A stretch of 45,390 bases of DNA from Verrucomicrobiales bacterium (GCA_046075565.1 JBJTQJ010000046.1:1-45390); one strand, 5' to 3'. Shown: positions 6,286 through 29,708, numbered from the stretch's first letter. Program-made: numbers and translations. Notes: a model not told the origin generated them from the sequence alone.

Positions 6286-6397
6286 GGGATTGATGATTTT
6301 TTGTTTATTCGTCAAAACCGGAATCTGGCACGACTTCGGGCATTCCGGTTTCAGCATGGGAAGATTATGCGACGAACAAACAGCCGACCATTTCCTT

Positions 6398-6454: not shown

Positions 6455-6604
6455 ATGATTGTTGTGGCCATTTCCTGAATCTCCATGCGATAATCACGGT
6501 GCTCTTATCCGGCATTATCATCATGATGGAATGAGCGAAAAATGTGACCACAGGAAAGCCCTAGTTGCAATACACATCCAATACATTTGCCATCCAAACA
6601 TCCC

Positions 6605-8827: not shown

Positions 8828-9733
8828 TTAAAGTTCGCCCGCCTTGCTCCGCTGGATTTCCGTCTGAAGGTTTTCCGCCCTTCTAGCAGCAGCGGGGAAA
8901 TCCCCGGTCGCACCACCGATTCGCAGAGGCGACAAGAGTTTCTCGGCCGGGACCGAACCGCTTTGCTCGGCGAGGAGCAACCAAGCGATGGCTTCTACGC
9001 GCTTGTTCTGATCATTCGACTCGGGGTCCAGCATCCGACCGTAGTTCATTTGCCCGAGGGTATGACCGAGAAGCGCGGCCTTGTGGAATAGCCTGATTGC
9101 CTCAGCGTCTTCCGCTTGCACGCCGATGCCACTTTCATACATGGTGCCAAGGGTATTGCACGCTCCCGGAATCCCTGCATCGGCGGCCACCTTGTAAAAG
9201 GGGAAGGCGGCGGCTCGGTCGACGGTAGCACCATGATTGCCATGGAAAAGCGCCTCCGCCCATTCAAGGTTCGCCTCGGGCAAACCCGTCGCGGCGGCCT
9301 TGCGGATCCACTCGCGCCCGTCCGCCGCATTCGCGGCGATTCCTTTGCCTTGGCAAAGCATAAGGCCATAATTGAGCATCGCCTTGGCCGATCCGAGTTC
9401 GGCCCCTTTGCGGAACCACCGCACCGCTTCGGCTTCGTCCTTGGGTGTCCCGATTCCGTTGGCCAGATAGTGGCCAATCGCCCCGACGGCATCGGGATAT
9501 CCCGCATCGGCGGCTTCTTTCATCAGGGCAAAAGACTCCTCGGGATTCCCACGCTTGAGCTCCTTGGGCAGAAGCGCGCGCGCCGCTTCGAATTTCGCGG
9601 CGGCATCGGAAAGCAGCGGCGCACCCGCGACCGGGATTTGTTCTTTCAGGTTTTTCCCTTCCACTCCCTCCGAACGAAGGCCGGAGAGAGAAAGGACGAA
9701 CCCAAAGCAAAAAATAGAATTCAAGGTTTTCAT
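8828..9733 (-). CDS. SEL1-like repeat (TPR-like) exported protein
   Basis: Repeated units such as GIGTPKDEAEAVRWFRKGAELG, AMLNYGLMLCQGKG and ACNTLGTMYESGIGV; N-terminal signal. ATG 9733 is 13 bp after the exoprotein stop. Confidence 0.9.
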   Translation of the reverse strand: MKTLNSIFCFGFVLSLSGLRSEGVEGKNLKEQIPVAGAPLLSDAAAKFEAARALLPKELKRGNPEESFALMKEAADAGYPDAVGAIGHYLANGIGTPKDEAEAVRWFRKGAELGSAKAMLNYGLMLCQGKGIAANAADGREWIRKAAATGLPEANLEWAEALFHGNHGATVDRAAAFPFYKVAADAGIPGACNTLGTMYESGIGVQAEDAEAIRLFHKAALLGHTLGQMNYGRMLDPESNDQNKRVEAIAWLLLAEQSGSVPAEKLLSPLRIGGATGDFPAAARRAENLQTEIQRSKAGEL

Positions 9734-9746
9734 GGCGGTATTCGTG

Positions 9747-12700
9747 TCAGGGAATCGCCTCCTCCCCACCTCCGTAACCGAGCACTTCGACCTCGATGAT
9801 GGAAGGAGCCTCTTCTTTTTCATCTTCTTCTTCTTCCTTTTTGGGCTGGGCCATTTGTGTCGCGGTGTTGGTGGTGGCGGCGGCGGCCGATGAGGCGGCG
9901 GTCAACCCGCCGATGTTCGGAGCGGCCACGGCGGGCGCGGAAGGCACGCCGGCCGTGCCGCCGGCGACCTGGATATTCGAAGCATTGAGCACGGCGGTGG
10001 CGGCGATGGTGAGGTTGCCGGTCGCCCGAATGCCTGCGTCGCCAGCATCGACCACACCCTGCGGCGCGATCAGTGCGACATTGCCTGCTTCCACTCCTTC
10101 GACAGCGGCGAGCACACCGATGCCGCCGCCCGTGGCCAAGCCGCCGAGATCCGTCTGGATATTGGCGCTCGTCACATCCACGAGAACCCGGGTGGGCGGA
10201 GCCGTGACCACGGTCCGCGGCGAGGAGCCGGCCGCGATGTCTCCCGTGGAAGACCACATGGTGATGTCGCCGCCACGCAGCGTGAAAATCCGAGCCTGAC
10301 CGATGTCCACGCTGCCGTCGGTAAACATGGAAATGCCACCGCCATATTCGGTCACCACTCCCGGCGGGGTAAGCGGATTGCCGAAGATGTCGGAGGCCAT
10401 GGTCAGGCCACCTCCGGGAGCGGCAAGCGAGATGTTTCCTCCGGTGCTGGTGCGGATGTCCCTGGCGCGCGTGAAGATATCGCCCGCGCCGCCAGCTCTG
10501 CCAAAAAGCACCTCGATGGCCGCGTATCCCTCGTCGTAGTTGCCGGTCGTGGCAGCCGTTTCACCGGCGGCGGCGAGGATCCGGTAGAATTCCTCCAGGG
10601 CGACGATGGCCTGTTGTTCGGGGTTAAGCGAAGCGAACGACGCTGCGCCGATGGATTCCATATAGGCCGAGGTTCCTTCGGGCCCTCCCGCGAGGTATTG
10701 GGCGATGAAGGCATCGAAGTCGAGGTTGCTGCCGGAGAGTCCGAGCGCCGGTCCGCCCGAGGTACCTCCGACACCGGCGAGGGCTAGGATATCGGCACCT
10801 GCAAAAGGTAGGAAAGGATTGCGGGCGTTTCCAATGCTCGTGATGCCGACCCCACGTCCATCAGTAAAGTTCGGTCCAGTGCCGAGGTCGATGTTCCTCC
10901 CGGCTAACACCTCGAGCACGCCCGGACCATTGATCTGGATGTCCCCGGCCATCGCGCTCGTGCCACGGCCGTCGGCTGTGGCCGCCGCTGGATCCCCGAC
11001 AGCGTTGCCAAGCGCGAGATTGTTGGCGATGGATCGCACCGGGGCGTTCGTGTTGAATGGGATGACATCGCGCCCTGACGAAACAATTGTGATGTCATCG
11101 CCCGCGATGTTTTGCAGGTAAAACGCGATATCGGTGATGTCCCGACCGGCATGAAGGCGCGAGGCCTTCGGAGAGAAGAGTGTGAATCCGGTGATATCCC
11201 CGTCCACGGCGCTTACGCGGAGAGGATTTAGAGCCCCGGCATGCAACAGTCCGGGGGCGTGAAGAGCCTGTTTGACTTGGATAGAGGCCGAGGCACCTGC
11301 ATACGAACCCGTCTCGACAATCGAAAGTCCGATTTGATCGAGCGCGTCGATGTTGCCTTGCAGGGCGGCGATCCGATTGCGACCGGTGAAAGTCTGGTAA
11401 CCGAGCGGACTGGTGATGGCCGGGAAGGCGGCCGGATCCGCATCGGAAAGATTGAGGGTGGCGGAGGTCCAGACCTGCACATTCCGGCCACCAACGCTTC
11501 CCGTTCCCGTGGGTTGCAGTCCGACAACCGATCCGGAAGCGAGGAGTTCCACTTGCCCCTTCGCGGAAGGGAAAAGCGTGAGGTCGCCGACCAGATTGAC
11601 ATCTCCGGCGAAGGCCGTGCTGCGGAGATTCGGCGCGCCCAGCGTGAACACCTCGCTGTATTGACCTAGGCCAAGTTCATTCAACCTCAGCCACGGTTGG
11701 AAATTCGAGGAAACGAAGGCCGACTCCACACCGGTGAAAAGGTTCTGCGTTTCGAACCAGGCCCCGACAATGGAACGAGCGGAGGAACTGCCCGGCAAGG
11801 TCACGGAATGACGGTGCGTGACACTTCCACCGAACGAAGCCGCGTCGATCCCGGAATTCTCACCGTAGGTCTGGAAGAATGTTTTATACCAATACCGGTT
11901 GTTCAATCCCTGGGGCAGAAGAAAAGGATTGATCGCCGGACCGAGAAGCACGTCTCCCCGCGCGGCGACGCGGAAATCCGATTTCCCGGTGAACAAAGTG
12001 GTCGGCATCCAGGTGACTTCCTCCAGCACGGCGGGAGTGGACGTGTCGAGGATACCCAGGGACAAGGTGCGGGCGGCATTGGTGGTGATTTCGCCTCCGG
12101 CGAAGAGTTCGCCATTTCCACGCTCCGTGTAATAGACACCACCGCTGATGTCGCGGCCCGCGATCACAGAGAGGTCCCCGCCCCCCCACTCAAGCAACCG
12201 CTCCGCCGATGGCGCGAGGTTCCCACCCGTGGAAGGATCAATACCGGCCATTCGCGCGTTTGTCGGAATGACGGCATCCAGATTGACCACATCACGACCG
12301 GCCGAGATGGAAACATCCCCACCACCGAGTGCACCCACCCCTTGGAAGAAATTGCTGAAATCGATCCACCAGGTTGTTGATGTCGATGGATCCGTGATGG
12401 AACTGATGATCGGCGTGGAGTCAACTCCACCATCGCTGGCGAAAAGTCCCGTGGCCGGATCCACATAACCGCGCCGGTAGAGCCAGTTCGTCGGCATCTG
12501 GCGGCTGCTGTCCGCGATGATGTTCCCGTTGAGCCGGGTGAAACGGCCGATATCCCCTTGCGCGCGGAGGTTCAGGTTCCCCCCGGCGAGCGTCCATGCC
12601 GGTTGGTAGAGCTGCTGGATGGCCCCCAAGGTGGAGCCCGCGCCACCAGCCTGGCTGGGATGGCGGTTGAGTGCGGTTGGGATCACGGGAACGGCGAAGT

Positions 12701-15700
12701 CATTCGCCTGGAACACCGTGGTGGGCACGGGCACGGCCACACCGGCCGTGTAGATGGTGGCGAACTGGTTGCGCAACTGCACGTCGCGCCCGGCATTCAC
12801 ATCGATCCCACCGGTGCCCGTGCGGATGACCTCGAAGCGCGTGCCGAGGTTGGTATTCGACGTCGAGATGCGGATGGTGTCGGCGGTTTGCCCGTTCGAT
12901 CCAATGGCCGCCGCCGTGCCGGTCGTCGCCGTGTTCGGAATGGCGGAGTAAAACTCACCCACCAGCACCGATCCTTTGCCCGCGGCCAGGGCGGATTGCG
13001 GCAAAACGGTCCCCCGACCGGCCGACGAGAAATCCGCTCCCGCCGTGATGCCATACGACCATGACTGGGTATTCATCGGCAGGTTCGGGTTGAGGGTCAT
13101 CAGCGTGGCGAGCCACATGGCCGAATGGCCGTTGTCGGCGGTCACCGCCACCGGATTGAAGCCATCGCTCAGGGTGTTGTTGAAAACGATATCCCCCGCC
13201 GCGCGCAGGGTCAGCACGCCAGGCGCGCCCTTGCTTCCATAACGGAAGGTGCTGAGATCCCAGTCTCCGGTGGAGAGGGTGGTCGCGTTTCCATTGTCCG
13301 CGTTGGGCGTGCCGAGATTCAAATCACCCGTGCGGTTGATGATTTCCACACCCGGAGCGAGCACGAGCGAGGCGCCTAGCATGGCCGCACCGGGAGCACC
13401 GACCAGCAGTCGTGTCGTGATGGCGGCTTCATTGGCATTGATGAATGCCTGCGCTTGGGTGTTCATGGTCCCGCGCAAAGTCGTTGTCAAGTTGCCACTG
13501 CCGGTGATGTCGTAAAGCCGGTATCCCTCGACAACAATCGAAGATGCGCCGCGGATGTCGCCGAGCAAGCTGGAGATGCCCACATCATTCGCCGTGCGGG
13601 GGGCCCGCAGATGCAGGGTGCCCGTGAGCTGGCCGCGCGACGCGCTGCTGCCGGGCGTGAGATAACCACCGGCCACGAATTCATCCACCCGGAGATCGAG
13701 CACGGCGCCCGTGGCGATATCCACGATCGCGGAAGAATTCACCGTGCCATTGATTTGATTGCCAGCCTCAAGACGAATCTCCCCTCCCTTGCCGGCGGAA
13801 TTGAATTCGGACGCCCGAGCCGTGAGCACGGCGTTGCCCGTGAGTTTGACGTTGTCGCGCGCGCCGAGTTGGATAAGCCCTCCGGTCAGGCCCGACGCGT
13901 CAATCTGAGCATCAACGGTGATCGATCCCGCGTCCGCCAAAAGAGTGAAGGATCGCGCCGTGATCGGACCACCGATGGTGATATCGCCAGTGCGCAACCT
14001 GAACTGCCTCGATTCGGTGAATCCTCCGGCATTGAGAGAGGCGGAAAGCGTGTCGAATCCGGGAATGGTGGCCGCGTCGAGTTGGAAAGAACCATCGCGT
14101 CCGCCCGTGCCACCATCGCCTAACAGAACACCATTGTTTCCAAAGGCGCCGCCCGGAGAGCGGATGACCAGCGAACCCGCGTTTCCTCCACCGGGCTGGG
14201 CGGCCACCGAGACGCGACTGCCCGCTTCGAGATTGACCGAGCCGCTGTCGGCCGCGAGCAGGATGGAACCGGCATCGGCGTAACGCGTGAGGTCGTGGAA
14301 GCCCTGGGCCACACCCTCGACATTCAGATTGCCTGCCACCCGGAGGTTGCCGGTCCTCGCCACGGCTTCAAGTTTGCCGCTCGGCAGCAGGATATCGGAC
14401 CGGAGATCCACGGCAGCGGCATTGATGACGAGAGCGGCACCAATACCAGGGACGATGCCTCCCGGGCCACCGGGATCGAGCAAGGTGAAATCGCCACCCG
14501 TCGTGATGGTCCGCGTGGACCCACGCTCACCGGTGAGCACCGGGGTGCGGAAAATGAGATCTCCGGTCACGCCCAGCCGGCCCGTTCCCGTGCTCGTGAT
14601 CGCGGATGTCGCCCCCAGGGTCGTGGTCGAATACCCCGCGATGGCGAAATCGTTCGCACCGAGCGTGGTGCGGGTGGTCTCAAGGACCAGGCTTCCCCCG
14701 CTCACCGGGGGCGCCGCCACGGCGGCGACCGCGCTCTCGTTGCCGAGGAAAAGTTCGCCCGCGCGTATCGTCACGGGACCACCGCTGTTTCTATATCCAC
14801 GAATCCCCGCGCCGGAAATCGAGAGATGCGCGAGGTCAGGACGCCCGAAGGTCCCGTCTCCATAGATATCCAGCGTGCGGTAGCTGCGCAGGTTCAAGCT
14901 TTCCAGCAATTGCACTTCCTGCAAGGTCGCGCCGGACAAGACAAGATGCGGATTGACCAGGGATCCTGCCAACGAACCACTCGCCCCCGGCAACACGATG
15001 CTGATTTGACCGCTGCCGAGCGTCAAGGCCCGGGCATCGAGAACGGCCGTGCTCGACAACGATGTCCCATAGCTTGAATCGAGAATCAAACCGGCTGCGG
15101 TGAAACTCGCTCCATCGCCGATTTCGAGCAGGGCGCTGGTCCCGGAACCGAGGTTCGAACGGAGAATGCCCGCTCCGGCATCACCGCTCGCGCGCACCAA
15201 TGCGCCATCACCGTTGACCGTGAGCATCTCGGCACCACCGACCGGAGCGGCGGTGGCTCGGAGATTCGAACCACCTGTCACCTCCAATTTCTCCCGAGCC
15301 GTCAGGATGATATCGGGTCCCGAAAACACGGAACCTGGATTGTCCAAGGTAAGATTGGTCGCGCGGGTATCCACCACGATGCCGGTGGGGGTATTCCGGC
15401 GCGCGCCACCGATGAGCAGGCTCTCGATACCCCAGGAGGCCAACTGTTCGGCGCGCAAGTTGAGCGCGGCTGGATCATCACTGCCCGTTCCTCCGACGAT
15501 GCGGATGTTCCCGCTGGCATTGATATCGGCGCGGGCCCCTTTGCCGCCGGCGGCGGGAGCGGCGCTGATGCTACCCAGCAGGCTCATCGTGCCGGTGGTT
15601 CCGAAGGAAAGATAACCGGCATCGGCAGGCAAGGTCTGCACCGTGGTCGCATTCACACGTCTGGCCGCCTCCGGCATGAAGGACCCCGCCTCGAACAATT

Positions 15701-21458: not shown

Positions 21459-21465
21459 GGGAGAA

Positions 21466-22371
21466 TCACTTTGCGGGCGGTGCCGCCGGGAGCACTTTGG
21501 ACAAGATCATTTCGTTGATGGCGATAGGATTGTCCTGAAGCAGCTTGGCCAAGTATTCCTGGGCCAACATCCGCTCGCGCTCCGCTTTCAGGCGGGCGGA
21601 TAGCTGCGGTCGGATTTGGTCCAAAGTGGGTGTGTAGGGTTCGCGCGAATCGAGCAGCTTGAGGATGTGCCAGCCGCCATCGAGACGGATCGCTTCGGAA
21701 ACCTGACCCAAGGCGAGCTTGGGCAGCACATCGCGGATGCCCGGTTGAATCTGTTCTTCGGTTAGCCACCCGATCTCTCCGCCCCGTGCGGCGCTGCCCG
21801 CCTCTTCGCTGTTGGCGGTGGCGATGGCGGAAAAGTCTGCATCTTTGGCAGCGAGCGAAGCCTGCACTTTCGCCAACTTTTCCTTCGCTCCTCCGGCAGG
21901 AGCAGCCTTCGGATCCGCGATGAAGACTTGGGCAAGGCGATAGGACTTGGTCACGCGGAGCGCGGCCTTGTTAGATTCATAGGCGGCCTGCAACTCCGCT
22001 TCCCCGGGATACCCGGCCGCGGTCTGGCTTTTCGATTCGAGGAATGTGCTGGTCACAATGGTCTCGCGGAGTTTTTCGAGCCGCTCGGTGACCACGGCTT
22101 GTTTTTCCCAGCCGACAGCCTTGGCTTCGCGGAGGAGAAGTTGCTGCGTGAGAACAGAGCGGACAAACTGCCCGAGCGCTCCGGGATCCCGGCGCAGGCT
22201 CTCTTTTTCAACATCAGTCAGCGCGGCCACTTTCGCGCGCACTTCCTCGAGACTCACGGAGGCTTCGCCCACGGAGGCAATGGTTTCCTTGCCATTCTCC
22301 TGGGCAATCAGGGAAAGGGAGGCGAGTTGGCTGGCGCAGACAATCAATCGGATCGAATGGGGAATTTTCAT
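21466..22371 (-). CDS. Periplasmic parvulin (PpiC-type) peptidyl-prolyl isomerase / SurA-like chaperone
   Basis: YRLAQVFI...ADFSAIATANSEEAGSAARGGEIGW...GQVSEAIRLDGGWHILKL rotamase pattern; signal peptide. Start 22371 (ATG) or 22395 (TTG). Confidence 0.88.
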   Translation of the reverse strand: MKIPHSIRLIVCASQLASLSLIAQENGKETIASVGEASVSLEEVRAKVAALTDVEKESLRRDPGALGQFVRSVLTQQLLLREAKAVGWEKQAVVTERLEKLRETIVTSTFLESKSQTAAGYPGEAELQAAYESNKAALRVTKSYRLAQVFIADPKAAPAGGAKEKLAKVQASLAAKDADFSAIATANSEEAGSAARGGEIGWLTEEQIQPGIRDVLPKLALGQVSEAIRLDGGWHILKLLDSREPYTPTLDQIRPQLSARLKAERERMLAQEYLAKLLQDNPIAINEMILSKVLPAAPPAK

Positions 22372-22391
22372 TGCGGATGGGATGGGGAGTT

Positions 22392-23135
22392 TCAAGGTTG
22401 GGTCGGTGCGGAAGGCACGACCTTTTCTAGGTCGGCAGGTTGCGACAGGGCCGCAGGACTGGACGGACTGGCCGGAACGGATGGTTTTGCGGGATCACCG
22501 GTGCGGATGAGTCCGTCGGCGAGTTTGTCGCGGTAGTCTTGGATTTGTTCCTCCAGTTTCACACGGGCGAGTCCCGTGAAGGGCTCGCGCGCGGCGAGGG
22601 CGCGCCCGAGGGAGAACTTCTCGTAACGTCCGAGGATTTCCTTCGCGGTCTGAAAGAGTTCCAGATTGCGGCGTTCACGGTCAGCCACCTTCTGTTCCAG
22701 CACCGACGCTTTGGAGGCGAGGCCAGCTCGTTCTTCTTCCTTCACGCGCGCCACTTTCGCCAACTCGGCATGGGATGCCTGCCATTTGGTAAGCGATGCG
22801 GCAAGGGCTTCGAGCCGGGCCGCACGTTGACCGAGTTCTTTCTCCTGCTCTGCGATCTTTTTCGCCGACTCCTCGCGTTCGTTGGTCGTGCGCGTGGTCA
22901 ATTCGGCGAAGCGCGCTTCGGCTGCTTTCTTCTCTTTTTCACTCGAGGCTTTCAATAGCTCGAGATCGGCGAGAGCCTGGGCCTTCTCGGTCTGGGCCGC
23001 ACGCAATTGCTGCGTGGTGGCGCGAAGGGAATCGCGCAGCTTCGCTTCCACCGCGCTGGCTTCAGCCGCATCTTGAGCGAGCAGGGCGCAGGATCCAAAG
23101 GCAAGGGTGATGAGGATAGTGGTGATGGAACGCAT
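22392..23135 (-). CDS. Exported coiled-coil protein of unknown function
   Basis: Signal peptide MRSITTILITLAFGSCALLA; long heptad-rich helix; conserved-looking end EPFTGLARVKLEEQIQDYRDKL. Tightly packed in the operon. Confidence 0.8.
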   Translation of the reverse strand: MRSITTILITLAFGSCALLAQDAAEASAVEAKLRDSLRATTQQLRAAQTEKAQALADLELLKASSEKEKKAAEARFAELTTRTTNEREESAKKIAEQEKELGQRAARLEALAASLTKWQASHAELAKVARVKEEERAGLASKASVLEQKVADRERRNLELFQTAKEILGRYEKFSLGRALAAREPFTGLARVKLEEQIQDYRDKLADGLIRTGDPAKPSVPASPSSPAALSQPADLEKVVPSAPTQP

Positions 23136-23140
23136 GGGAA

Positions 23141-25042
23141 TCAGAAGCTGGCATTGAGATCGATGAGCAGGAGATCCGACTTGAGGGGCGGTCCGGCGAT
23201 TTCGTTGCCCGACATCCAGCGGAGACGGAAGACGACATCCTGGCTCACGGCAAGCGAACCGCCGAGCATGAACCCCTCGGTGTTGGTGCCACCGAACCAG
23301 TCGGAATCCACCAGGGCATCAAGGAGAGCGTCGCTCTCGATATAGCGGTATCCGAATTCCATGTTCCAATCCCATTTCTCCTTGGGTTTCGGTTCTCCGA
23401 ATTGGATACCGACATTCCAGGCGGTGTCGCCGCCGGCGTAATTGCCGACACTCGCGCCTTCGGCCACCGGACCGCGGTTGTTGACGGCCGTTGCTCCGAT
23501 GTCAACAGGGTCATGGGCGAGGTTGACTGCGTATTCACCGAACAGGCCGATGCGCACGGGTTCAAAATGGTCGAGGTCGATACGACCCGTGTAATTGAGC
23601 ACGCGGAATTCGGAAGCGAGGCCGAAATACTGCCACTGCTTGGATGTTCCAAAATCGTTCAAAGGATCGGCGATGATGTCGCGCAAGGCCATGTAGGTGT
23701 TTCCGCGCTGGGCAAAGCCGGGCCGGCGCGCGTCGGTATCCCCAGCATCCTTGGTGCTGAGGGGCAGATATGGAGTCGAGCGTTCTCCCTGAATGTTGTC
23801 GAAATCAAAATAACCGACGCCGAACTTGGCCGAGACATCTTTGGCGGGCTTGAAGCCAACGCCACCCTGCGCTCCATAGAGCCAGCGGTCGGTGCTCTCG
23901 AACTTGTCGGGATTATTGGTCGAGAAGTTGAGCGAGGTATTGAAGATGGGGAACATCCCGGCGTTGAGGAAGGGCATGACACCTGGAGCGATTTCGCGGC
24001 GGGCCTGCAAGCTGAGCCCGTCAAAGCCGAGATCGTCATCCCAAATCATGCTGCTGGTGCTGTAAAACGGGTTGTCGAATCTCCCGGCCTGGAAAGTGAC
24101 ACCGTAATCCGGTTGCCAGGGAAGCGGTGCTTTGTCATCGGAAACCGGTGCCACCGCATCAGGCAGGATTTCGTAACGAATGTAGCCCCGATCCAGCCAG
24201 AGCGAGTATTTGCTGAAGTTTCCACCGCCGGCACCCAGACGCTGGTTCGGGCTAACCGGGCTGGCGTCATTGCCCGTGGCCGCCCTCAGGCCGAGGCTCC
24301 ACCCGTCTCCGAGCAATGCCTCGACTCCCAAACGGGCGCGCAATTGCATGGAAGTGCGATCTTCGTCCACATTCAATTGAGGAGAGAAGTCGGTCCCCGC
24401 CACATCAAACGGCTCGCCGGTATTGATGGCATTAAAATCGGGAAAGGCCCCGGTGTTGTCATTCGCATTCTCGGGGAAATACTGGCCGGTGAAGCGGGCA
24501 CGCACATCGCCGGAGAAGGTGAAATTCTCCGAACCAGATTTATTGAATTGGAAGGAGCCTTCCTTGGCCTCGCGCAGAAGGTCCGCCTTGATCTCCTCCT
24601 GAAGACGCTGGCGCACGGGATCGGGCACATGCGTGACGACGACATCTCCATCCGTGGCCATCGAAGCGTCGGCGGCGATGAGTGCGGCGGCAGCGGAAGC
24701 CTGTCTGGCCATGGCGGCCTCCTGCTCCGCTTGCGCCATCATGGTCTCGGCTTCGGCTTTGGTGAGCACTCCCTTGCTGACAAGGATGCGGATCAGATTG
24801 ACCACGGCGGTTTCCGAAGGCAGCGCGCCGGCATCCGGTTGTTCGGGCGGCAGGAGGTTCTCCGCAAGCATGGGAGGTTCGGCCAGCAACTTTTCCAGTT
24901 CTTCCTCGGCTGGCGGCTCACCGAAGCCGGGCAAAGCACCGGGAGGCGGTGAGGGCGGAGATTCTTCCGCGGGAAGAGCGAGGCCGGGCCATCCGGCGGC
25001 AAGGAGCAGGAGCGGCAGTTGGTGACGGAGGATTGATGTCAT
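23141..25042 (-). CDS. Putative outer-membrane porin (Porin_5-like beta-barrel)
   Basis: Signal peptide; N-terminal LIRILVSKGVLTKAEA helix; barrel begins FSGDVRARF; LWLDRGYIRY, WDDDLGFDG; C-terminal IDLNASF with terminal Phe. Confidence 0.82.
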   Translation of the reverse strand: MTSILRHQLPLLLLAAGWPGLALPAEESPPSPPPGALPGFGEPPAEEELEKLLAEPPMLAENLLPPEQPDAGALPSETAVVNLIRILVSKGVLTKAEAETMMAQAEQEAAMARQASAAAALIAADASMATDGDVVVTHVPDPVRQRLQEEIKADLLREAKEGSFQFNKSGSENFTFSGDVRARFTGQYFPENANDNTGAFPDFNAINTGEPFDVAGTDFSPQLNVDEDRTSMQLRARLGVEALLGDGWSLGLRAATGNDASPVSPNQRLGAGGGNFSKYSLWLDRGYIRYEILPDAVAPVSDDKAPLPWQPDYGVTFQAGRFDNPFYSTSSMIWDDDLGFDGLSLQARREIAPGVMPFLNAGMFPIFNTSLNFSTNNPDKFESTDRWLYGAQGGVGFKPAKDVSAKFGVGYFDFDNIQGERSTPYLPLSTKDAGDTDARRPGFAQRGNTYMALRDIIADPLNDFGTSKQWQYFGLASEFRVLNYTGRIDLDHFEPVRIGLFGEYAVNLAHDPVDIGATAVNNRGPVAEGASVGNYAGGDTAWNVGIQFGEPKPKEKWDWNMEFGYRYIESDALLDALVDSDWFGGTNTEGFMLGGSLAVSQDVVFRLRWMSGNEIAGPPLKSDLLLIDLNASF

Positions 25043-25049
25043 GGGGAAT

Positions 25050-25772
25050 TTAATTCGAGGGACGGGCGGTGATGCGCAGGTGGATGGGCATGGGCATGTC
25101 TGAAGGCGGCGGCTCGGGAAGTTGAAGACCCGGCAGAATATCCTCTCGGAGGGCGGCGTCGAGGTCGGAGCGGCCGGTGCTTCCGACGAGTTGCGCGCGG
25201 GTGACTCGACCGATGGAATCGGCCCAAATGCGCACTTGCAGCGTCATCCGCGCGGAGCGGGTGCGGGGATCTCCGCGCAAGGCCTGGGCAATGGTCGTTT
25301 GCACGCGGGCGGCGTAGGACCCGTATTTCGTGCCGGAACGGCGCGAGGGCCCGCCGATGCCTTTGCCTCCGAGGCTGCCTCCTCCTCCTTTGCCCGCTTT
25401 CAATCCGAATCCATCGTCCCCATCACCTGCGACGGTGGTCGTCATCGCCTCGGGCTCCGCCGCGGGAGCGTCTTCGGGAGGAGCTTCGACGGGAGCTTCT
25501 TCCTGCACAAACTCCTCGACTTTCTGTTCGGCCACATCCGGCGGTGGGGGAGGTTCTTCCTTCGGCGGCGGAGGAGGTGGTGGGGGGGGAGGTGGGGGAG
25601 CCAAATCCACCATCTGGATCCGCTTGGCCGGCTTTTTTGGGGCTTCCTTGGGACCGGAGGCAAATTTCATGTACGCTCCGATGCCGGCTCCGCAGAGCAG
25701 TAACGCGATGAGCCATCCGCGATGGCGGGCGAAAAACCCGCGGTCGTCGTTGTCGTCGTAAGGATCGTTCAT
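25050..25772 (-). CDS. TonB/TolA-family energy transducer
   Basis: Single N-terminal TM helix, poly-Pro spacer, Gly-rich linker, TonB/TolA-type C-terminal domain (LQVRIWADSIGRVTRAQLVGSTGRSDLDAAL). Confidence 0.88.
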   Translation of the reverse strand: MNDPYDDNDDRGFFARHRGWLIALLLCGAGIGAYMKFASGPKEAPKKPAKRIQMVDLAPPPPPPPPPPPPKEEPPPPPDVAEQKVEEFVQEEAPVEAPPEDAPAAEPEAMTTTVAGDGDDGFGLKAGKGGGGSLGGKGIGGPSRRSGTKYGSYAARVQTTIAQALRGDPRTRSARMTLQVRIWADSIGRVTRAQLVGSTGRSDLDAALREDILPGLQLPEPPPSDMPMPIHLRITARPSN

Positions 25773-25790
25773 CGTTTCAGGAAGGGTGGA

Positions 25791-26192
25791 TTATTTCGGC
25801 GCCTGGGTGGCGAGGCCGATTTTCGTGATGCCGACACGTCCGATGACATCGAGCACGTCCATGATGCCCTGGTACTGCGTCCCCCGGTCGCCGCGCACCA
25901 CGACGGGAAACTCCGGGTTCTTCGTCTTATGCTCGGAGAGACGTTGTTCGAGTTCCTGCAAGGTCACCGGCACGGTATCGAGGAAGATTTTGCCTTCATT
26001 GTTGACGGTGATGGCGCGTCCCTTCGGACCGCTGATTTCCGGAGCCTTGGCGCTACCCCGGGGAAGGTCCACCTTCATTCCCTGCACACCGGCCGTGGTC
26101 ATGATGATGAAGATCAGCAACAGCACGAGGTAGAGATCCACCATCGGTGTGACATTGATGTCGTCGTAGGATTTGTCGTCGCCGGCCTGCAT
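25791..26192 (-). CDS. exbD: ExbD/TolR family biopolymer transport protein
   Basis: DINVTPMVDLYLVLLLIFII with the essential Asp; VVVRGDRGTQYQGIMDVLD...KIGL. ATG at 26192 immediately follows the exbB stop. Confidence 0.93.
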   Translation of the reverse strand: MQAGDDKSYDDINVTPMVDLYLVLLLIFIIMTTAGVQGMKVDLPRGSAKAPEISGPKGRAITVNNEGKIFLDTVPVTLQELEQRLSEHKTKNPEFPVVVRGDRGTQYQGIMDVLDVIGRVGITKIGLATQAPK

Positions 26193-26193
26193 G

Positions 26194-28017
26194 TTATTTT
26201 GCCTCCTTGTAGAACTCGGCCATCTTGGTGATGAACTCGTCGATGAACATCTGCAACTCACTCATCACCTGCTTGATGCGCGAGGACAGGTAGCTATAAA
26301 TGAAGAGCGCGGGGATGGCGACGACCAGCCCGGCCACCGTGGCGAGCAGGGCGCTGGCGATACCGGGGGCAATGGAATTCACCTCAACCTCCCCGCTCTT
26401 GGCGATGATGGCGAAGGTGATCATCACGCCCATGACCGTGCCGAGAAGTCCGACGTATGGCCCGCCCGCGATGCTGATGGTCAGGAAAACAAGCCCGCCA
26501 TTGAGTTTATGCTGTTCCTTGAGCGCCCCTGAATCCAGGCTGGCCTTGATAGCCTGGATGGAACGCCCCGAAAGCCCGTCGAATCCGCGTTTAGTCTTCT
26601 GGGTCCGGTGGCTGATCTCCTCGGAACCAATGTGGTAAAGGTGGTAAAGGGGCGACTGGTTGATCAACTTCCTCCGTTCGACTTCGATCGCGGGCACTCC
26701 GTCGGTTTCCTGATCGAGGGCGGTGAGGTCGGCGGCCAATTTGCGCCATTCTCTCAGGAAAGCCTTGTTGGCTTTATCGACGCGATTGAGATAGAAGAGC
26801 TTTTTCAAGGCGACCGTCCAGCCCACGATGATCATGAGGACACACAAGGCGACGGCGATCCATCCGTCGAACATCATGTTTTCGGCGATGTCTCCGAAGA
26901 GCATGATATGCTCGAGTGTCTCACTTTTTTTCTCCGGTCCGGTGGAGCTTTCCTCCCCGCCGAGCACGACGAGTTTCTGGGCGGCTTCCGTTCCGGACTG
27001 ATTGGCGATCTGGAAGAGCAAATCGGCGGCGGCCAAGGTCCGCCCGACGATGCGGAATTCATCAACCTCGCCCGCAAAAGCCGGGTATTGGGAGGATTTG
27101 CCACCCAGCCAGGAAGCTCCGGCGAGCGCGGGCAGCGTCTTGGCCACCTCGGCCACCTGATTGCCATCAACGAACAGACGCAAGTTCCCTTGGCCCGTTG
27201 TGGCCGCAAGATGACGCCACGCGCCATCGGCGATCGCTTCCGGGGCATCGGCGCGTGCCGTGCCGGCGGCATCGCCGATCTCGACGTAGGGTTTGCCCCC
27301 ATCGAGACCGATGGTGAAAAAGGCCCCTCCCTCCTCGCGATGGAAAATGACGGCATTGCCCGGTTTAACAACCGGTTTGATCCAGAGCGAAACCGTGAGT
27401 TCCTGGCCGGCGTTCCATCGAAGCGGTTCGGCGGCGGCGATTTCAAGTCCGTTGTTGCCGAAAAACCTCAGGCCACCACCTATGAGCGCTCCTTCGACGG
27501 GCGTGGGCGTGCCGACAATTGTCACTCCTTTGCCGGTAGCGTCGGCGGGCGTTCCTCCCTTGTCGCTGAACGGCAGCACGAGCATGGCCTCCGGTGGATA
27601 AAGACCCTCGGCCTTCGCGGATGGTGCCTCGGGATTGCCATGATAGAGCCAGATTCGGGTGGAGGAAGATGGTTTCAGATCTCCCGCGTTCACCCAGACA
27701 ATGGCTTCGTTCATCAAGGCATCGATTTTCTCGACGCGATGGGGCAACACGGTCTTGTTATCGGCCGCCAGAAAACGCAGGTCCCCACCGTCCTCCCGGA
27801 CACTGGCGAAATTGAAATTTCCCTCGTGCAAGCGCACGGCGACGAGCGCTCCCGCCACCGGTTCTTTGGCGGGAGAATCACCACCAATGACGATATCGAT
27901 CGGCTTGCGGGCGCTCCAGGCCTGGTCCCACCAGGGCGTTGTGGACGCGGCATCATCCGCGCGGAGAAGAGATGCGAATGAAATGAGGGTGAGGAAGATG
28001 GCACGGGTCGTGGACAT
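26194..28017 (-). CDS. exbB: ExbB/MotA/TolQ proton channel fused to N-terminal DUF2341 and LamG (concanavalin-like) domains
   Basis: WWDQAWSARKPI...DGGDLRFLAAD...IWLYHGNP (DUF2341-like); TVSLWIKP...WRHLA...LFVDG...FAGEVDEFRI (LamG); GPYVGLLGTVMGVMITF...IAPGIASALLATVAGLVVAIPALFIY (ExbB). Confidence 0.9.
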   Translation of the reverse strand: MSTTRAIFLTLISFASLLRADDAASTTPWWDQAWSARKPIDIVIGGDSPAKEPVAGALVAVRLHEGNFNFASVREDGGDLRFLAADNKTVLPHRVEKIDALMNEAIVWVNAGDLKPSSSTRIWLYHGNPEAPSAKAEGLYPPEAMLVLPFSDKGGTPADATGKGVTIVGTPTPVEGALIGGGLRFFGNNGLEIAAAEPLRWNAGQELTVSLWIKPVVKPGNAVIFHREEGGAFFTIGLDGGKPYVEIGDAAGTARADAPEAIADGAWRHLAATTGQGNLRLFVDGNQVAEVAKTLPALAGASWLGGKSSQYPAFAGEVDEFRIVGRTLAAADLLFQIANQSGTEAAQKLVVLGGEESSTGPEKKSETLEHIMLFGDIAENMMFDGWIAVALCVLMIIVGWTVALKKLFYLNRVDKANKAFLREWRKLAADLTALDQETDGVPAIEVERRKLINQSPLYHLYHIGSEEISHRTQKTKRGFDGLSGRSIQAIKASLDSGALKEQHKLNGGLVFLTISIAGGPYVGLLGTVMGVMITFAIIAKSGEVEVNSIAPGIASALLATVAGLVVAIPALFIYSYLSSRIKQVMSELQMFIDEFITKMAEFYKEAK

Positions 28018-28034
28018 GGGAAAGTATCGTAAAG

Positions 28035-29708
28035 TCAGAAATCGGCCCAGAGACGGAAGCTGAGGAACGGGTCGCCGGCGGTAGTGTAAGTCTGGTCCTC
28101 GAGCGGCCAGGCCACATCGACGGCTCCATTCCAGTGTTTCCAAGCGAGAAGACGGGTCCCAACACCGACGCTGGAGAGGTCGAAGGCTTTCTTCTGCGTG
28201 GGCAGGGGTCTGTTAAGAAGGACCCGCCCGCCATCGACGAAGGCATGGAATCTCCACTCGTGTCTGGGATTGTTGTTGCGCTCTTCCGGCGGAACCCATT
28301 TCTGGAGCAGTGAAGGGGTTCGGATCTCCATCGTTCCGAAATACCCTTTGTCGCCCAGAGTTTCGCTTTCTAGGTAACCGCGCACCGTGCCCTGCCCGCC
28401 GCCAGCGAATTGTTCGCTGTTGATGAGGGCGTCCGCGGTGGCCTGGCCCTGGAGTTTCATGAAGGCCTGAAATCCTCCCGGCAAATCATGGGTGTGGGAA
28501 AGATCGCCGCGCAGGAAGATGTATTTGCCGTCCGCCTCGAAACGTTTTGCATCGAACTCGAAAGTGTCGCTGCCCAGACCGCGGGTGTGGAGATTGACCG
28601 AGGCATTGAGAGTGGTGAAGGTCTTCTTCCCGTCCCAAGATGCGCTGTAGGAAAGATTGAATGGATAGTATTCGATGGGAGTGGAGAAAGACTCTGCACC
28701 GACCACCACATCCTCGTCGAATTGTTTCCAGTCGAAACCCGTGGAAAGGCTGTGGAAAAATCCATCGCCGCCCGGAAGGGTCCGGTTGATGCGCAGCCCG
28801 AGAATCTGACCGCGTCCCGCCACGGCCGCGCCACCAAGCGTCGAAACATCGCTGTCCTGTTTGGTACCATTCAACATGACACTCCATTCCGGGGCGGAAG
28901 CGAAGCGAGCGATATAATAAGCAGAATAGACAAGGGCGTCTTCGGGCCGTTCCGGCGCGATTTGCAATGCTCCTCCGACGGAGTGTCCGACTTGCCAGAG
29001 ATTGTCGTAAGAAAGCGAGGTATTGAGACGCAGTTCGGTGGTGTCAGGACTGTAGCGGTTGTTCAACTCAACACTGCCATGCAGAGGGAACTTGTCTTCC
29101 ACATTCAGGTCCACATCCACCGTGCCGGGCTCAACCCCGGGGCGCAGGACGGGGGTGACTCGTCGGTCCGGCCACGCATTGACAGCCACGATTTCCTTCT
29201 GCACTTGATCAAAATCCGGCACCTCGCCCTCGGCCAGAGAGGGCACAGACTTGACGACGCGCGATGGCAGGAAATATTTCGCTCCACGCACGCGAAGACG
29301 ACCGACTTTGTTCTCTACCGCATCCAGGTAGATGATGCCCCGGGTTCCATTCTGCTGGGGGATTTCGACCGCCACCGTCTGATAACCTTCGTCTCGGTAG
29401 GCTTTCTCCAAGGCGGCGCGGGCCTGCTCGAGATCTTCGAGCGTGCGCCCCGGCCCGACATAGGGATACACCGCTTTCTCAACGCTAGCGGGAGGAAGCT
29501 TTTTCGCCCCGCGCACCCGGAATTGACGCACAAGGAATCGCAATTCAGGTTCGGTCTTTGCCGTATCATCCAGTTCCGGCAACGGTTCCACGAACGGCGG
29601 GAGAGCTTCGCTGCTCTCGCTCGTCCGCTCCTCGCCACGCACGATGGCGCACACCAGTAACAGGCTGGCGAGGGTCTGGCGGAACTTGGTCTGAAACGGA
29701 ATCGACAC
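28035..29708 (-). CDS. ShlB/FhaC/HecB family (TpsB, Omp85) outer-membrane secretion/activation protein
   Basis: POTRA domains (LEQARAALEKAYRDEGY...IPQQ), beta-barrel with the loop-6 motif TVRGY, C-terminal Phe (LWADF). Confidence 0.92.
   Translation of the reverse strand: MSIPFQTKFRQTLASLLLVCAIVRGEERTSESSEALPPFVEPLPELDDTAKTEPELRFLVRQFRVRGAKKLPPASVEKAVYPYVGPGRTLEDLEQARAALEKAYRDEGYQTVAVEIPQQNGTRGIIYLDAVENKVGRLRVRGAKYFLPSRVVKSVPSLAEGEVPDFDQVQKEIVAVNAWPDRRVTPVLRPGVEPGTVDVDLNVEDKFPLHGSVELNNRYSPDTTELRLNTSLSYDNLWQVGHSVGGALQIAPERPEDALVYSAYYIARFASAPEWSVMLNGTKQDSDVSTLGGAAVAGRGQILGLRINRTLPGGDGFFHSLSTGFDWKQFDEDVVVGAESFSTPIEYYPFNLSYSASWDGKKTFTTLNASVNLHTRGLGSDTFEFDAKRFEADGKYIFLRGDLSHTHDLPGGFQAFMKLQGQATADALINSEQFAGGGQGTVRGYLESETLGDKGYFGTMEIRTPSLLQKWVPPEERNNNPRHEWRFHAFVDGGRVLLNRPLPTQKKAFDLSSVGVGTRLLAWKHWNGAVDVAWPLEDQTYTTAGDPFLSFRLWADF

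Follow-up and report, generated by a model that had tools for sequence, protein, structure and literature searches.

A conserved gene block joining two-partner secretion, an ExbB/ExbD/TonB-like motor and a stalked porin in a freshwater Verrucomicrobiales bacterium

Two-partner secretion (TPS) is taught as a two-gene, energy-free process, and TonB systems are taught as importers acting on plugged receptors. The TPS exoproteins FhaB and CdiA are giant β-helical proteins whose C-terminal part may remain in the periplasm. The FhaB/FhaC pair, a type Vb system, comprises two genes and lacks an energy input, and type V secretion proceeds in vitro without an energy source (PMC5422565); a motor is thus not required for export as such. 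A TPS pair linked to TonB-dependent transport has been described for Haemophilus influenzae, where the exoprotein of the HxuA/HxuB/HxuC system captures a nutrient (PMC5422565, PMC4873976); HxuC is a plugged TonB-dependent transporter which relies on the general TonB of the cell. Non-import roles of Exb/Tol-type motors have precedents in Myxococcus: the Oar/PopC system indicates that a TonB system can serve protein export (PMC6434023), and in the Agl-Glt machinery a Tol/Exb-type motor, proteins with TonB C-terminal domains, barrels, TPR-type proteins and an adhesin form a force chain (PMC11761067).

The closest described gene cluster is PA0690–PA0699 of Pseudomonas aeruginosa, which comprises pdtA, (phdA), pdtB, exbB2, exbD2, tonB4, and the genes of the putative porin PA0696, PA0697, PA0698 (YbjN) and PA0699 (a PpiC PPIase), and which belongs to the VreI/PhoB regulon (PMC7035377, PMC2729926). 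Llamas et al. reported in 2009 that homologues of the TPS genes, exbBD and PA0696 co-occur in a number of proteobacteria (PMC2729926), and the TonB system of the cluster was still termed uncharacterised in 2020 (PMC7035377). Transposon mutants in tpsA, tpsB, the tonB homologue and PA0696 showed wild-type virulence towards zebrafish embryos in a background overexpressing vreI (PMC2729926).

The window analyzed here, a stretch of 45,390 nt from a freshwater Verrucomicrobiales bacterium, contains nine genes coding for TpsB, a DUF2341/LamG-ExbB fusion, ExbD, a TonB-like protein, a Porin_5 barrel, a coiled-coil protein, a parvulin, TpsA and a Sel1-repeat protein, in this order (Table 1). An earlier note on this DNA had described them as a co-directional operon with spacings of about 1–20 bp; all nine were indeed found at those positions on the minus strand, and with the likeliest start codons (for ExbB, ExbD and Sel1, those given in Table 1) the gaps amount to 17, 1, 18, 7, 5, –4, 7, and 13 nt.

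Table 1. Features of the window and the matches or properties on which their assignment is based
Feature	Position	Strand	Matches and properties
Source DNA, Verrucomicrobiales bacterium, freshwater	GCA_046075565.1 JBJTQJ010000046.1:1-45390		45,390 nt window
Possible accessory gene, secreted protein of a family without name, predicted PstS-like fold	6587..7963	(+)	ESM Atlas structure search
Gene block	8828-29708	(-)	nine co-directional genes
Sel1-repeat protein, accessory	8828..9733	(-)	Sel1 2.2e-24; signal peptide; true start 9733
TpsA, 3903-aa exoprotein	9747..21458	(-)	N-terminal TPS 7.1e-19; C-terminal DUF3739 9.2e-30
TpsA tail motif P-S-I-I-E-V-E-V-L-G-Y-G-G	9768..9806	(-)	low-complexity C-terminal tail, acidic flanks
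Parvulin-type peptidyl-prolyl isomerase, SurA/PpiD-like, accessory	21466..22395	(-)	Rotamase 3.1e-16
Secreted coiled-coil protein, PA0697 position	22392..23135	(-)	conserved C-terminal R-E-P-F-x-G module
Porin_5 barrel with N-terminal periplasmic helical stalk	23141..25042	(-)	Pfam Porin_5 2.5e-167
Extended segment G-D-V-x-V-x-[YH]-V-P-[DE], porin stalk residues 132-141	24620..24649	(-)	candidate TonB-box-like strand
TonB-like protein	25050..25772	(-)	N-terminal TM helix, poly-proline spacer, divergent C-terminal domain
ExbD	25791..26192	(-)	Pfam ExbD 2.3e-27 (96 bits); likely start ATG 26192
ExbB with N-terminal periplasmic DUF2341 and LamG domains	26194..28017	(-)	~607 aa from ATG 28017; ORF open to 28143
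TpsB, FhaC/ShlB-type Omp85 exporter, 557 aa	28035..29708	(-)	ShlB 2.1e-16; POTRA_2 5.6e-15

Judged by its gene content, the block is of the pdtA/pdtB-exbB2-exbD2-tonB4-PA0696-PA0699 type. From TpsB through to the PPIase, the P. aeruginosa cluster agrees with the window in both its components and their order (PMC7035377, PMC2729926), a match which is based on the annotation of strain PAO1 and on a plasmid-borne Klebsiella block as intermediate that has exactly the published order. The locus of the window differs from it in belonging to another phylum, the Verrucomicrobiota, in the position of TpsA, which is located downstream of the block rather than upstream, and in the additional Sel1 gene, while YbjN, phdA and VreA/VreI/VreR are lacking. 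A counterpart of the VreA/VreI/VreR and PhoB control of P. aeruginosa was not found when 22 flanking ORFs were scanned, none of which matched sigma factor or FecR families. The earlier note's mention of a similar gene order in proteobacteria was thus correct, and its estimate of novelty was too high, since the association was published in 2009 (PMC2729926). As the P. aeruginosa cluster was noted at that time and was uncharacterised in 2020, the locus presented here is a further instance of a known, unexplained block; what the present analysis adds are the TpsA tail motif, the porin stalk segment, the absence of plugs from the barrels, the separate motor of the classical receptor, and the recurring phosphate-scavenging neighbourhood.

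The block is strongly conserved. Upstream DNA was sufficient at 56 verrucomicrobial loci, of which 55 retain each of the motor genes (ExbB N-domain, ExbB channel, ExbD and TonB) and 54 have TpsB 5' of the porin. In the set of 60 loci used for the genes on the other side, the coiled-coil gene follows the porin in 59, TpsA is located 3' of the block in 56, and a parvulin gene is present in 20; no TpsA gene lies within reach in the remaining 4, and one locus (L059) consists of the porin alone. Across the order, 121 genomes were compared: 38 have both the TpsA C-terminus and Porin_5 and 78 have neither, leaving 3 genomes with TpsA only (two of the three matches are at contig ends) and 2 with the porin only, both of which are fragmented assemblies. 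In 27 genomes, among them G000, a single contig carries both genes at a distance of 12–15 kb. All eight core proteins are moreover homologous to those of blocks of like order in Methylosinus, Klebsiella, and Cupriavidus, so that the homologues span the Alpha-, Beta-, and Gammaproteobacteria. Chance cannot account for an arrangement whose order and strand recur at 54–55 of 56 loci in other species; at the level of gene order, such linkage shows a common pathway and no mechanism.

The co-occurrence anticipated in the earlier note therefore holds, as do the presence and order of the nine genes, with the small correction that two of them are accessory. A Sel1 gene is found 3' of TpsA in 8 of 29 relatives and 5' of TpsB at one locus; the parvulin gene, present in a third of the verrucomicrobial loci, also occurs in all three proteobacterial blocks. 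The coiled-coil protein, for which Pfam gives no family, is homologous to the "hypothetical protein" encoded after the porin in the three proteobacteria (E 5e-20 to 2e-12); signal peptides were predicted for 78 ORFs of this family, and a lipobox-like site in just 2.

With a TPS-domain exoprotein and a POTRA/ShlB-type TpsB encoded in the same operon, the locus has the gene content of a type Vb system. It shares with FhaB/FhaC a giant β-helical exoprotein, the TPS domain with an NPNG motif and an Omp85 exporter with POTRA_2 and a VRGY loop; it departs from it by the motor, the additional barrel and the periplasmic helpers that regularly accompany the pair. TpsB matches ShlB (60.7 bits) and POTRA_2 (55.4 bits) above the Pfam cut-offs, the VRGY loop-6 motif is seen in its translation, and it is 40–47% identical to the ShlB proteins of the proteobacterial blocks. 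TpsB N-termini showed no conservation when compared across homologues. An FhaC-like H1 plug helix is doubtful, because the N-terminus is short and unconserved, and the FhaC barrel as target of the motor, proposed in the earlier note, finds no backing in this region.

The ExbB protein combines DUF2341 (4.7e-11), Laminin_G_3 (1.2e-22) and MotA_ExbB (1.8e-27, 96 bits) matches. In 58 of 58 readable loci the signal peptide, a "WW-x-x-x-W-T-x-R" start and the channel share one frame, and the N-domain has homologues in Methylosinus, Klebsiella and Cupriavidus (E 1e-50 to 1e-67). The motor residues appear intact, as had been claimed: ExbD contains the transmembrane aspartate in TPMVD, and the ExbB threonines in GTV and ATV, T527 and T560, are invariant in 49 orthologues. 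All scores of the NCBIfam equivalog models exbB, tolQ, exbD and tolR for the motor of the window were below the cut-offs, indicating that ExbB and ExbD represent a paralogous subfamily. The TonB-like protein exceeds the cut-off of Pfam TonB_2 (2e-07, 31.4 bits versus 22) and falls short of that of NCBIfam tonB_Cterm (24.8 bits versus 27.1); a profile of 43 orthologues gave marginal matches to HasB (E 0.15) and TolA (0.27) in the PDB, where solved structures of TonB, TolA and HasB were reached only at E 0.15–0.27. Compared with classical ExbB-ExbD-TonB systems, the block shares the MotA_ExbB channel and the ExbD aspartate, along with a TonB-like protein whose transmembrane anchor and poly-proline region are visible in the translation and whose C-terminal domain is a borderline candidate for a TonB domain; it differs from them by an ExbB extension of about 400 aa, the very divergent TonB_2-type domain, and the lack of a Plug client. 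The C-terminal domain of the TonB-like protein is, as judged from 42% sequence identity to the Methylosinus protein, paralogous to that of the VreA-like signalling protein flanking the proteobacterial block, suggesting that both may read a cluster-specific ligand; VreA itself has been described in P. aeruginosa (PMC2729926).

A plugged client was not found in the block, as Plug and TonB_dep_Rec were unmatched across its nine proteins. It differs in this from HxuA/HxuB/HxuC, and also in that it encodes a motor of its own. The genome contains 11 MotA/ExbB-family matches versus just 2 Plug matches; of the two Plug-family receptors, one is split into at least three ORFs, and the intact one is directly followed by its own TonB_C-type TonB, ExbB and ExbD. 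The TonB-like protein of the block is hence not needed for ordinary receptors; service to such receptors elsewhere was an outcome that the earlier note had named as speaking against its proposal, which therefore withstands this check.

TpsA, the product of the only TPS-domain gene of the genome, scores well above the cut-offs of Pfam TPS (69.2 versus 33.5 bits) and NCBIfam adhes_NPXG (70.6 versus 29.1). Its tail contains an invariant motif with the consensus PS-x-x-T-V-E-V-L-G-Y-G-G; the core, V-[EQ]-[VL]-[LI]-G-Y-G-G, was seen in every one of 30 verrucomicrobial TpsA tails. The motif also occurs in Methylosinus sp. C49, Klebsiella and M. trichosporium, and as the variant ...T-V-R-V-L-G-F-G-N in Cupriavidus and Variovorax. 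It is retained even in TpsA genes located away from the block, which fits a docking signal for a common machine, and it may resemble a TonB box. A degenerate DNA pattern of the motif has one occurrence in the genome; export of other surface proteins in the manner of a type IX secretion system, as envisaged in the earlier note, is not supported by a tail signal that is single.

The porin, encoded by a single-copy gene, matches PF16930 over its full length (558 bits, model positions 3–535 of 535). Its AlphaFold2 model (pLDDT 73.9) consists of helices at residues 78–160, followed by about 16–18 strands, and in a Foldseek search with this model the stalked porin OmpM1 of Veillonella came first (8bym, E 2.5e-14, TM 0.71 by target); DcaP of Acinetobacter ranks ninth (6eus, E 7.9e-10), and OprB, AlgE and OmpF were also matched, while TonB-dependent receptors were not among the Foldseek matches. 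In accordance with the earlier note, neither TpsB nor the porin matches the Plug family, and the porin model resembles general porins. Helices precede the barrel N-terminally in OmpM1 and DcaP likewise, yet identity to these proteins is just 11–14%, and the stalk of the porin in the window has no SLH domain match and carries conserved motifs found solely in this block. One of them is the extended segment listed in Table 1, which is conserved in the window, Methylosinus, Klebsiella and Cupriavidus, as is the mature N-terminus across phyla. P140 is invariant in 83 sequences; residues 128–140 were modelled without regular secondary structure, with pLDDT <50 at positions 129–136. The D-V-x-V-x-Y/H-V-P part of the segment may, like the TpsA tail, be compared to a TonB box.

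Dedication of the motor to a TPS/porin complex is well supported by these data; we infer all physical contacts and the direction of work. The reading we prefer, at a probability of roughly 0.55, is that a proton-driven motor reserved for the cluster acts on the outer-membrane components encoded there, instead of on a plugged receptor, by a grip on the TpsA tail and/or the porin stalk. The motor would consist of an ExbB pentamer with periplasmic DUF2341/LamG domains, ExbD and the divergent TonB-like arm, and would face TpsB, the plug-less stalked Porin_5 barrel and the giant TpsA filament on the outer-membrane side. TpsA would leave through TpsB with its N-terminal TPS domain leading, while its disordered C-terminal tail would remain periplasmic. 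The C-terminal domain of the TonB-like protein could then grip a strand of this tail, and/or the D-V-x-V-x-Y-V-P strand of the porin, by strand addition, and proton-motive force might allow the filament at the TpsB-porin station to be finished, held, put under tension or set free, presumably with the coiled-coil protein and the parvulin as periplasmic helpers. The gene neighbourhood described below suggests a use of the module in phosphate scavenging or in attachment to surfaces. Against this reading stand the energy-independence of type V secretion in vitro, the wild-type virulence of the P. aeruginosa mutants, the distance of the TonB-like domain from solved TonB, TolA and HasB structures, and the loci in which TpsA is missing. 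The motor-powered TPS machine of the earlier note thus stands with respect to co-occurrence and the separate classical TonB, and not with respect to the FhaC barrel as target or to export resembling type IX secretion. A bolder version, which we regard as speculative, holds that the dedicated motor grips the TpsA tail, that proton-motive force completes, retracts or releases the filament at the station formed by TpsB and the stalked porin, and that in proteobacteria VreA, through its paralogous domain, signals the condition of this tail to an ECF sigma factor.

An alternative, which we consider possible though unlikely, is energised import, with Porin_5 as the true client of the motor, that is, a plug-less, stalk-gated TonB-dependent channel, and with TpsA merely capturing or degrading a probably phosphate-containing cargo. 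It follows the logic of HxuA/HxuB/HxuC, a TPS system serving TonB-dependent uptake (PMC5422565), and would account for the conservation of the stalk segment and of the mature N-terminus of the porin across phyla. In P. aeruginosa, phosphate starvation induces the block via PhoB and VreI, and the adjoining genes encode a secreted alkaline phosphatase and the type II secretion system of this enzyme (PMC7035377, PMC2729926, PMC5422565); in plant-associated Pseudomonas, the block is located beside alkaline phosphatase or phosphate-binding proteins (PMC7204214). A PBP_like_2 gene directly follows TpsA in Methylosinus (27.1 bits versus a cut-off of 27), and the Cupriavidus blocks adjoin a type II secretion system and secreted nucleases. 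In the window, the predicted PstS-like gene lies 865 nt from the operon end, and a member of its family adjoins TpsB in 8 of 80 loci. The likeness of its product to PstS/PBP_like_2 clusters (TM 0.71–0.75, normalised by hit) stems from one predicted-structure search in the ESM Atlas, and sequence-level searches gave no match, so that this putative accessory part of the module is a lead only; phosphate-binding neighbours, moreover, occur in a minority of loci. Against import as the work of the motor, a barrel lacking both a plug and similarity to TonB-dependent receptors would require a new gating mechanism, and the invariant TpsA tail motif stays unaccounted for.

In another account, the motor and the TonB-like arm would pull on the surface filament through the barrels without any transport, moving the cell or exposing, retracting or tensioning an adhesin. 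The parts list recalls Agl-Glt, TPR/Sel1-type proteins included (PMC11761067, PMC9946355), a chitin-binding-type insert in some TpsA orthologues suggests attachment to particles, and the TonB-like protein weakly matches the NCBIfam model of GltJ. However, this match (E 0.001, 18 bits) is far below the cut-off of 450, homology to Agl-Glt is limited to generic motor and TonB-like domains, the adhesin is a TPS exoprotein rather than a lipoprotein, Sel1 is accessory, and a cytoplasmic platform, an MglA-type switch or other Glt components are not found in or beside the block; we therefore judge this account very improbable. Bacteria often hold several TonB/Tol paralogues without known clients. The TPS pair, the porin and the Exb/TonB proteins might accordingly be independent functions that share one regulon, the TonB-like protein serving ordinary receptors or envelope integrity. 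The number of MotA/ExbB-family matches in this genome would agree with such mere co-regulation, as would the lack, as far as the 2009 report goes, of a phenotype linking the genes, motor and TpsA included (PMC2729926). Yet two phyla preserve the order, the strand and the close spacing of the genes, the LamG extension is always part of ExbB, the phyletic pattern is near all-or-none, the sole intact receptor has its own motor, and the TonB-like domain is unlike classical TonB, which makes this the least probable of the accounts considered.

The fixed association of TPS genes with a motor, seen in Verrucomicrobiota as well as in three proteobacterial classes, suggests that proton-motive force is put to a use at the outer membrane that has so far gone unrecognised. 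The tail motif, the porin strand, the LamG-bearing ExbB, the TonB-like domain shared with VreA, and the phosphate-scavenging neighbourhood provide experimental handles. Should the TpsA tail prove to be gripped by the dedicated motor, two-partner secretion would gain its first energy-coupled example, and TonB systems a client of a new class. If the motor acts on either TpsA or the porin, type V secretion and TonB function would need to be redescribed, and the orphan TonB system of P. aeruginosa would be explained.

The window contains nine consecutive genes reading in one direction (see table), which, at the most plausible start codons, are separated by 17, 1, 18, 7, 5, −4, 7 and 13 nt. The transmembrane aspartate of ExbD and two ExbB threonines, the latter invariant in 49 orthologues, are present; open reading frames (ORFs), Pfam, start codons and alignments thus confirm the tightly spaced, co-directional block with intact motor residues described in the earlier note. 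In an NCBIfam scan of the block, the matches to the exbB/tolQ, exbD/tolR and tonB models all stayed below their cut-offs, the adhes_NPXG domain of TpsA being the exception that scored above; the motor is therefore regarded as a paralogous subfamily. The operon is flanked by housekeeping genes, among which a sigma/anti-sigma pair was not found, and promoter and terminator scans at both of its ends yielded nothing above shuffled expectation that would be useful for setting boundaries. Two ORFs without family match adjoin the operon, the 243-aa product having a signal-anchor-like N-terminus; other loci showed no link between either ORF and the block. By the names of its homologues, the source organism belongs to Verrucomicrobiota. 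The window DNA is matched by DNA runs only, four in number and all of a single freshwater-metagenome study; no RNA run is listed.

Features of the window and of related loci (positions refer to the window unless a locus is named; G000, genome of the window; L091, plasmid of Methylosinus sp. C49)
Feature	Strand	Position	Annotation
Gene block	minus	8828–29708	nine genes, TpsB to Sel1
TpsB	minus		Pfam ShlB barrel and POTRA_2
ExbB, long	minus	start 28017	Pfam DUF2341 and Laminin_G_3 ahead of MotA_ExbB channel
ExbD	minus	start 26192	Pfam ExbD
TonB-like protein	minus		Pfam TonB_2
Porin_5 barrel, full-length	minus		Pfam, E 2.5e-167
Coiled-coil protein	minus		no Pfam family
Parvulin-type isomerase	minus		Pfam
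TpsA, 3903 aa	minus		Pfam N-terminal TPS domain, C-terminal DUF3739
Chitin-binding-type insert of TpsA, 44 residues	minus	~16130–16260	TpsA residues ~1749–1792
Sel1-repeat protein	minus	start 9733	Pfam Sel1
ORF, 481 aa	minus	5041–6486	no family match
ORF, 458 aa	plus	6587–7963	secreted; no Pfam or NCBIfam family
ORF, 243 aa	plus	8079–8810	no family match
Receptor locus		G000:C119:76668–81443	Plug-domain match
Receptor locus		G000:C124:46939–48977	Plug-domain match
Second ShlB-family barrel		G000:C81:8356–9156	
VreA-like protein, C-terminal domain		L091 7872–8603	

Conservation of the block was assessed by scanning one genome per species with the porin alignment, which gave 579 places encoding a relative; the best 80 were retained, and the window proteins were placed on them by tblastn. 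All but two of these best 80 of 579 loci bear verrucomicrobial titles. The remaining two, titled as ‘Enterobacteriaceae’ (L035) and ‘Chloroflexia’ (L052) bins, carry a typical verrucomicrobial block and may well stem from contigs that were mis-binned or mislabelled. Upstream of the porin, TpsB was matched in 54 of the 56 loci that extend at least 5.6 kb in this direction, and the LamG and channel parts of ExbB, as well as ExbD and TonB, in 55 of 56 each; downstream, the 60 loci with at least 4.5 kb of sequence contained the coiled-coil gene in 59 and TpsA in 56 cases, the parvulin gene merely in 20. Gene order and strand are identical throughout the loci compared. Exceptions are L059, which has the porin alone, and L027, which lacks a TpsB match; in L017, L067 and L081, tblastn did not find TpsA within reach. 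A Sel1 gene lies 3′ of TpsA in 8 of 29 relatives. In 109 loci, no homologue of the PCC-domain and S10-peptidase genes that lie upstream of TpsB occurs near the block, so that these genes were not counted as part of the operon.

In a set of 121 genomes from the same order, 41 had a match to the TpsA C-terminus and 40 to a full-length Porin_5; the denominators being identical for both families, the tallies were taken as one sample, with both proteins in 38 genomes, TpsA only in 3, the porin only in 2, and neither in 78. The TpsA-only genomes comprise G371 and G382, in which the matches lie at contig ends, and G384, while the assemblies of both porin-only genomes (G358, G368) are fragmented. A single contig carries the two matches, 12–15 kb apart, in 27 genomes. 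The co-occurrence of the genes across genomes, on which the earlier proposal depended, therefore holds, and synteny and co-occurrence counts together define a core of TpsB, LamG-ExbB, ExbD, the TonB-like protein, Porin_5, the coiled-coil protein and TpsA. A phylum-wide scan with Porin_5 matched 72 of 301 genomes, just 9 of which encode full-length orthologues (10 places); it was left out of the co-occurrence tally because most matches are partial and belong to another subfamily. The 63 verrucomicrobial genomes with partial matches only encode porins of about 400 aa covering model positions ~155–330 and 430–535, a separate and much commoner Porin_5 subfamily.

Outside the Verrucomicrobiota, a search with the window porin gave 13 records of Proteobacteria, which are plasmids or secondary replicons. 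The block of Methylosinus sp. C49 starts with a VreA-like protein, an ECF sigma factor and FecR, followed by ShlB, a 604-aa ExbB, ExbD, TonB, a ‘putative porin’, a hypothetical protein, a PPIase, YbjN and a 4128-aa haemagglutinin-family protein. In Klebsiella quasipneumoniae, the order is TpsA, ShlB, a 612-aa ExbB, ExbD, TonB, porin, hypothetical protein, YbjN, PPIase, hypothetical protein and LysR; the Cupriavidus block adjoins a type II secretion system as well as a secreted nuclease. The core proteins of the window and their counterparts in these three blocks are all homologous, with E values of 1e-122 to 1e-149 for TpsB, 1e-50 to 1e-67 for the ExbB N-domain, 1e-36 to 1e-57 for ExbD, 3e-15 and 7e-11 for the TonB domain, 1e-79 to 1e-137 for the porin and 2e-12 to 5e-20 for the coiled-coil protein. 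By the published gene list, P. aeruginosa PA0690–PA0701 has exactly the order of the Klebsiella block: pdtA, phdA, pdtB, exbB2, exbD2, tonB4, PA0696 (‘putative outer membrane porin’), PA0697, PA0698 (YbjN family), PA0699 (PpiC isomerase) and PA0701 (LysR) (PMC7035377). The earlier note was thus right in pointing to a similar gene order in Proteobacteria. The novelty it stated was too high, since in Llamas et al. 2009 (PMC2729926) homologues of the TPS genes, exbBD and PA0696 are already described as travelling with the PUMA3 signalling system in several proteobacteria; there, the P. aeruginosa cluster genes are reported to be VreI-induced, and tpsA, tpsB, tonB-homologue and PA0696 mutants to show no change in virulence. 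A 2017 review of two-partner secretion lists PdtAB for regulation and virulence only, and states that type V secretion is driven by no energy source (PMC5422565). Our literature search found no paper on the function of exbB2/tonB4/PA0696, on bacterial DUF3739 or on the TpsA tail motif described below. The gene association is already known, and the locus adds a member from a further phylum to the PdtAB/ExbB2D2/TonB4/PA0696 kind.

The genome of the window (3.9 Mb; completeness by marker genes, 100%) has 11 MotA/ExbB-family matches as against two Plug-domain matches. An intact TonB-dependent receptor of 757 aa is directly followed by genes of a TonB_C-type TonB, ExbB and ExbD; the second receptor is broken over at least three ORFs. 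As the sole intact receptor has its own motor, the TonB-like protein of the block is not needed for ordinary receptors elsewhere, a role that had been considered as an objection to a dedicated machine. With 11 such matches and one intact receptor, most Exb/Tol-type motors of the organism must have non-plugged clients. Pfam detected no Plug domain in either barrel of the block, TpsB or porin. The genome also encodes a second ShlB-family barrel, with just one TPS-domain gene.

The TonB-like domain is divergent: a 43-orthologue profile gave marginal matches to the PDB (HasB, E 0.15; TolA, 0.27). The C-terminal domain of the TonB-like protein shares 42% identity over 72 residues (E 3.6e-10) with that of the Methylosinus VreA-like protein. 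In this domain, the latter, a ‘secretin and TonB N-terminal domain’ protein, is nearer to the window TonB-like protein than is the TonB of the Klebsiella block. In VreA, as described by Llamas et al., a signalling domain is linked with a TonB/TolA-like one (PMC2729926). The occurrence of one domain in both proteins suggests that sensor and motor arm may read a common, cluster-specific ligand. The LamG/DUF2341-ExbB fusion is kept in all 58 readable loci, and the extension should be periplasmic, since it sits after the signal peptide; a 2025 survey of MotAB relatives lists DUF2341 as an appendage of ExbB-like subunits with unknown function (PMC12505986). The coiled-coil protein is secreted, mostly not a lipoprotein (lipobox-like site in 2 of 78 sequences), and has a conserved C-terminal module; its ESM Atlas matches are unnamed families only, from both phyla.

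As to the outer-membrane partner, an action of the motor on the FhaC-type barrel had been proposed, but TpsB is a poor candidate for its grip, as orthologue comparison showed the N-termini to be short and unconserved. An AlphaFold2 model of the porin, built from 83 sequences (mean pLDDT 73.9, pTM 0.68), predicts helices at 78–89, 95–127 and 141–160, followed by about 16–18 strands. The top Foldseek match was OmpM1, a stalked attachment porin (E 2.5e-14), followed by MOMP, OprB, OmpK36, DcaP, AlgE and OmpF; TonB-dependent receptors were absent among the matches. Conserved from Verrucomicrobiota to Klebsiella are two segments of the stalk, the mature N-terminus, S-x-N-x-T-x-N-L-I-x-L-L-V-x-x-G-V-L-T, and the stretch G-D-V-x-V-x-Y/H-V-P-E, which is unstructured in the model.

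In the window TpsA, the stretch P-S-I-I-E-V-E-V-L-G-Y-G-G lies within low-complexity sequence about 45 residues past DUF3739. Its core is present in 30 of 30 verrucomicrobial TpsA tails examined, in Methylosinus and Klebsiella, and in block-detached TpsA proteins of M. trichosporium, Cupriavidus basilensis and Variovorax, the last two having T-V-R-V-L-G-F-G-N. It looks like a short, invariant, strand-like docking signal in a disordered tail, and may be likened to a TonB box. The corresponding DNA pattern occurs once in the genome of the window, other carriers not being found by this exact-pattern search, which could miss variants; a T9SS-like export of other surface proteins, as envisaged in the earlier note, is therefore not supported here. 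TpsA also contains a CBM_5_12-like insert (22.2 bits, cut-off 26.2), found in about 17 orthologues, twice in L060 and L078, and precisely absent from most others; this patchy, clean distribution marks it as a mobile binding module of the filament. A Cupriavidus basilensis plasmid (L127) and a Variovorax paradoxus replicon (L128) carry giant DUF3739 TpsA genes detached from any TpsB/motor/porin block. The neighbours of these genes code for type II secretion, for a substrate-binding protein and a secreted nuclease, and for an ECF sigma factor.

We favour, at a probability of about 0.55, a dedicated motor and outer-membrane module of the PdtAB/ExbB2D2/TonB4/PA0696 kind, whose TonB-like arm serves cluster-encoded parts. 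The arm would dock on the TpsA tail and/or the porin stalk, and the proton motive force might be used for completion, holding or release of the filament. Of the earlier interpretation, the linkage and the dedicated motor are supported; the grip on TpsB and the T9SS-like export are not. That the components form an Agl-Glt-like force chain appears improbable, and mere co-regulation of otherwise independent genes hardly probable.

The main rival, which we consider possible but rather unlikely, holds that the stalked porin carries out energised import, for which TpsA serves as capture device. It is favoured by the phosphate context. In Proteobacteria, phosphate-starvation functions accompany the block: genes for nucleases and for type II secretion occur nearby, a PBP_like_2 gene lies directly 3′ of the Methylosinus TpsA, and substrate-binding proteins adjoin block-detached TpsA genes. 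In plant-associated Pseudomonas, the neighbours of the same gene set are a type II secretion system plus either alkaline phosphatase or phosphate-binding proteins (PMC7204214), and in P. aeruginosa, the block is under PhoB and VreI control and is found with the Hxc secretion system and its alkaline phosphatase (PMC2729926, PMC7035377, PMC5422565). In the window, the ESM Atlas model of the 458-aa protein resembles PstS-type phosphate-binding proteins (TM 0.71–0.75, normalised by hit). The protein belongs to a large family of verrucomicrobial ‘hypothetical proteins’ (817 matches at E ≤ 0.001), members of which lie beside TpsB in 8 of 80 loci, in several other species directly upstream of it. Pfam, NCBIfam, phmmer against the PDB and a 30-sequence profile against the PDB gave no PstS identity, so that this reading, coming from structure search with sequence methods silent, is a lead only. 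As the whole story, import is opposed by the tail motif, which the dedicated motor module would accommodate as a docking site. Together, the tail and stalk motifs turn energy-coupled two-partner secretion, and a TonB that works without a plug, into directly testable questions.
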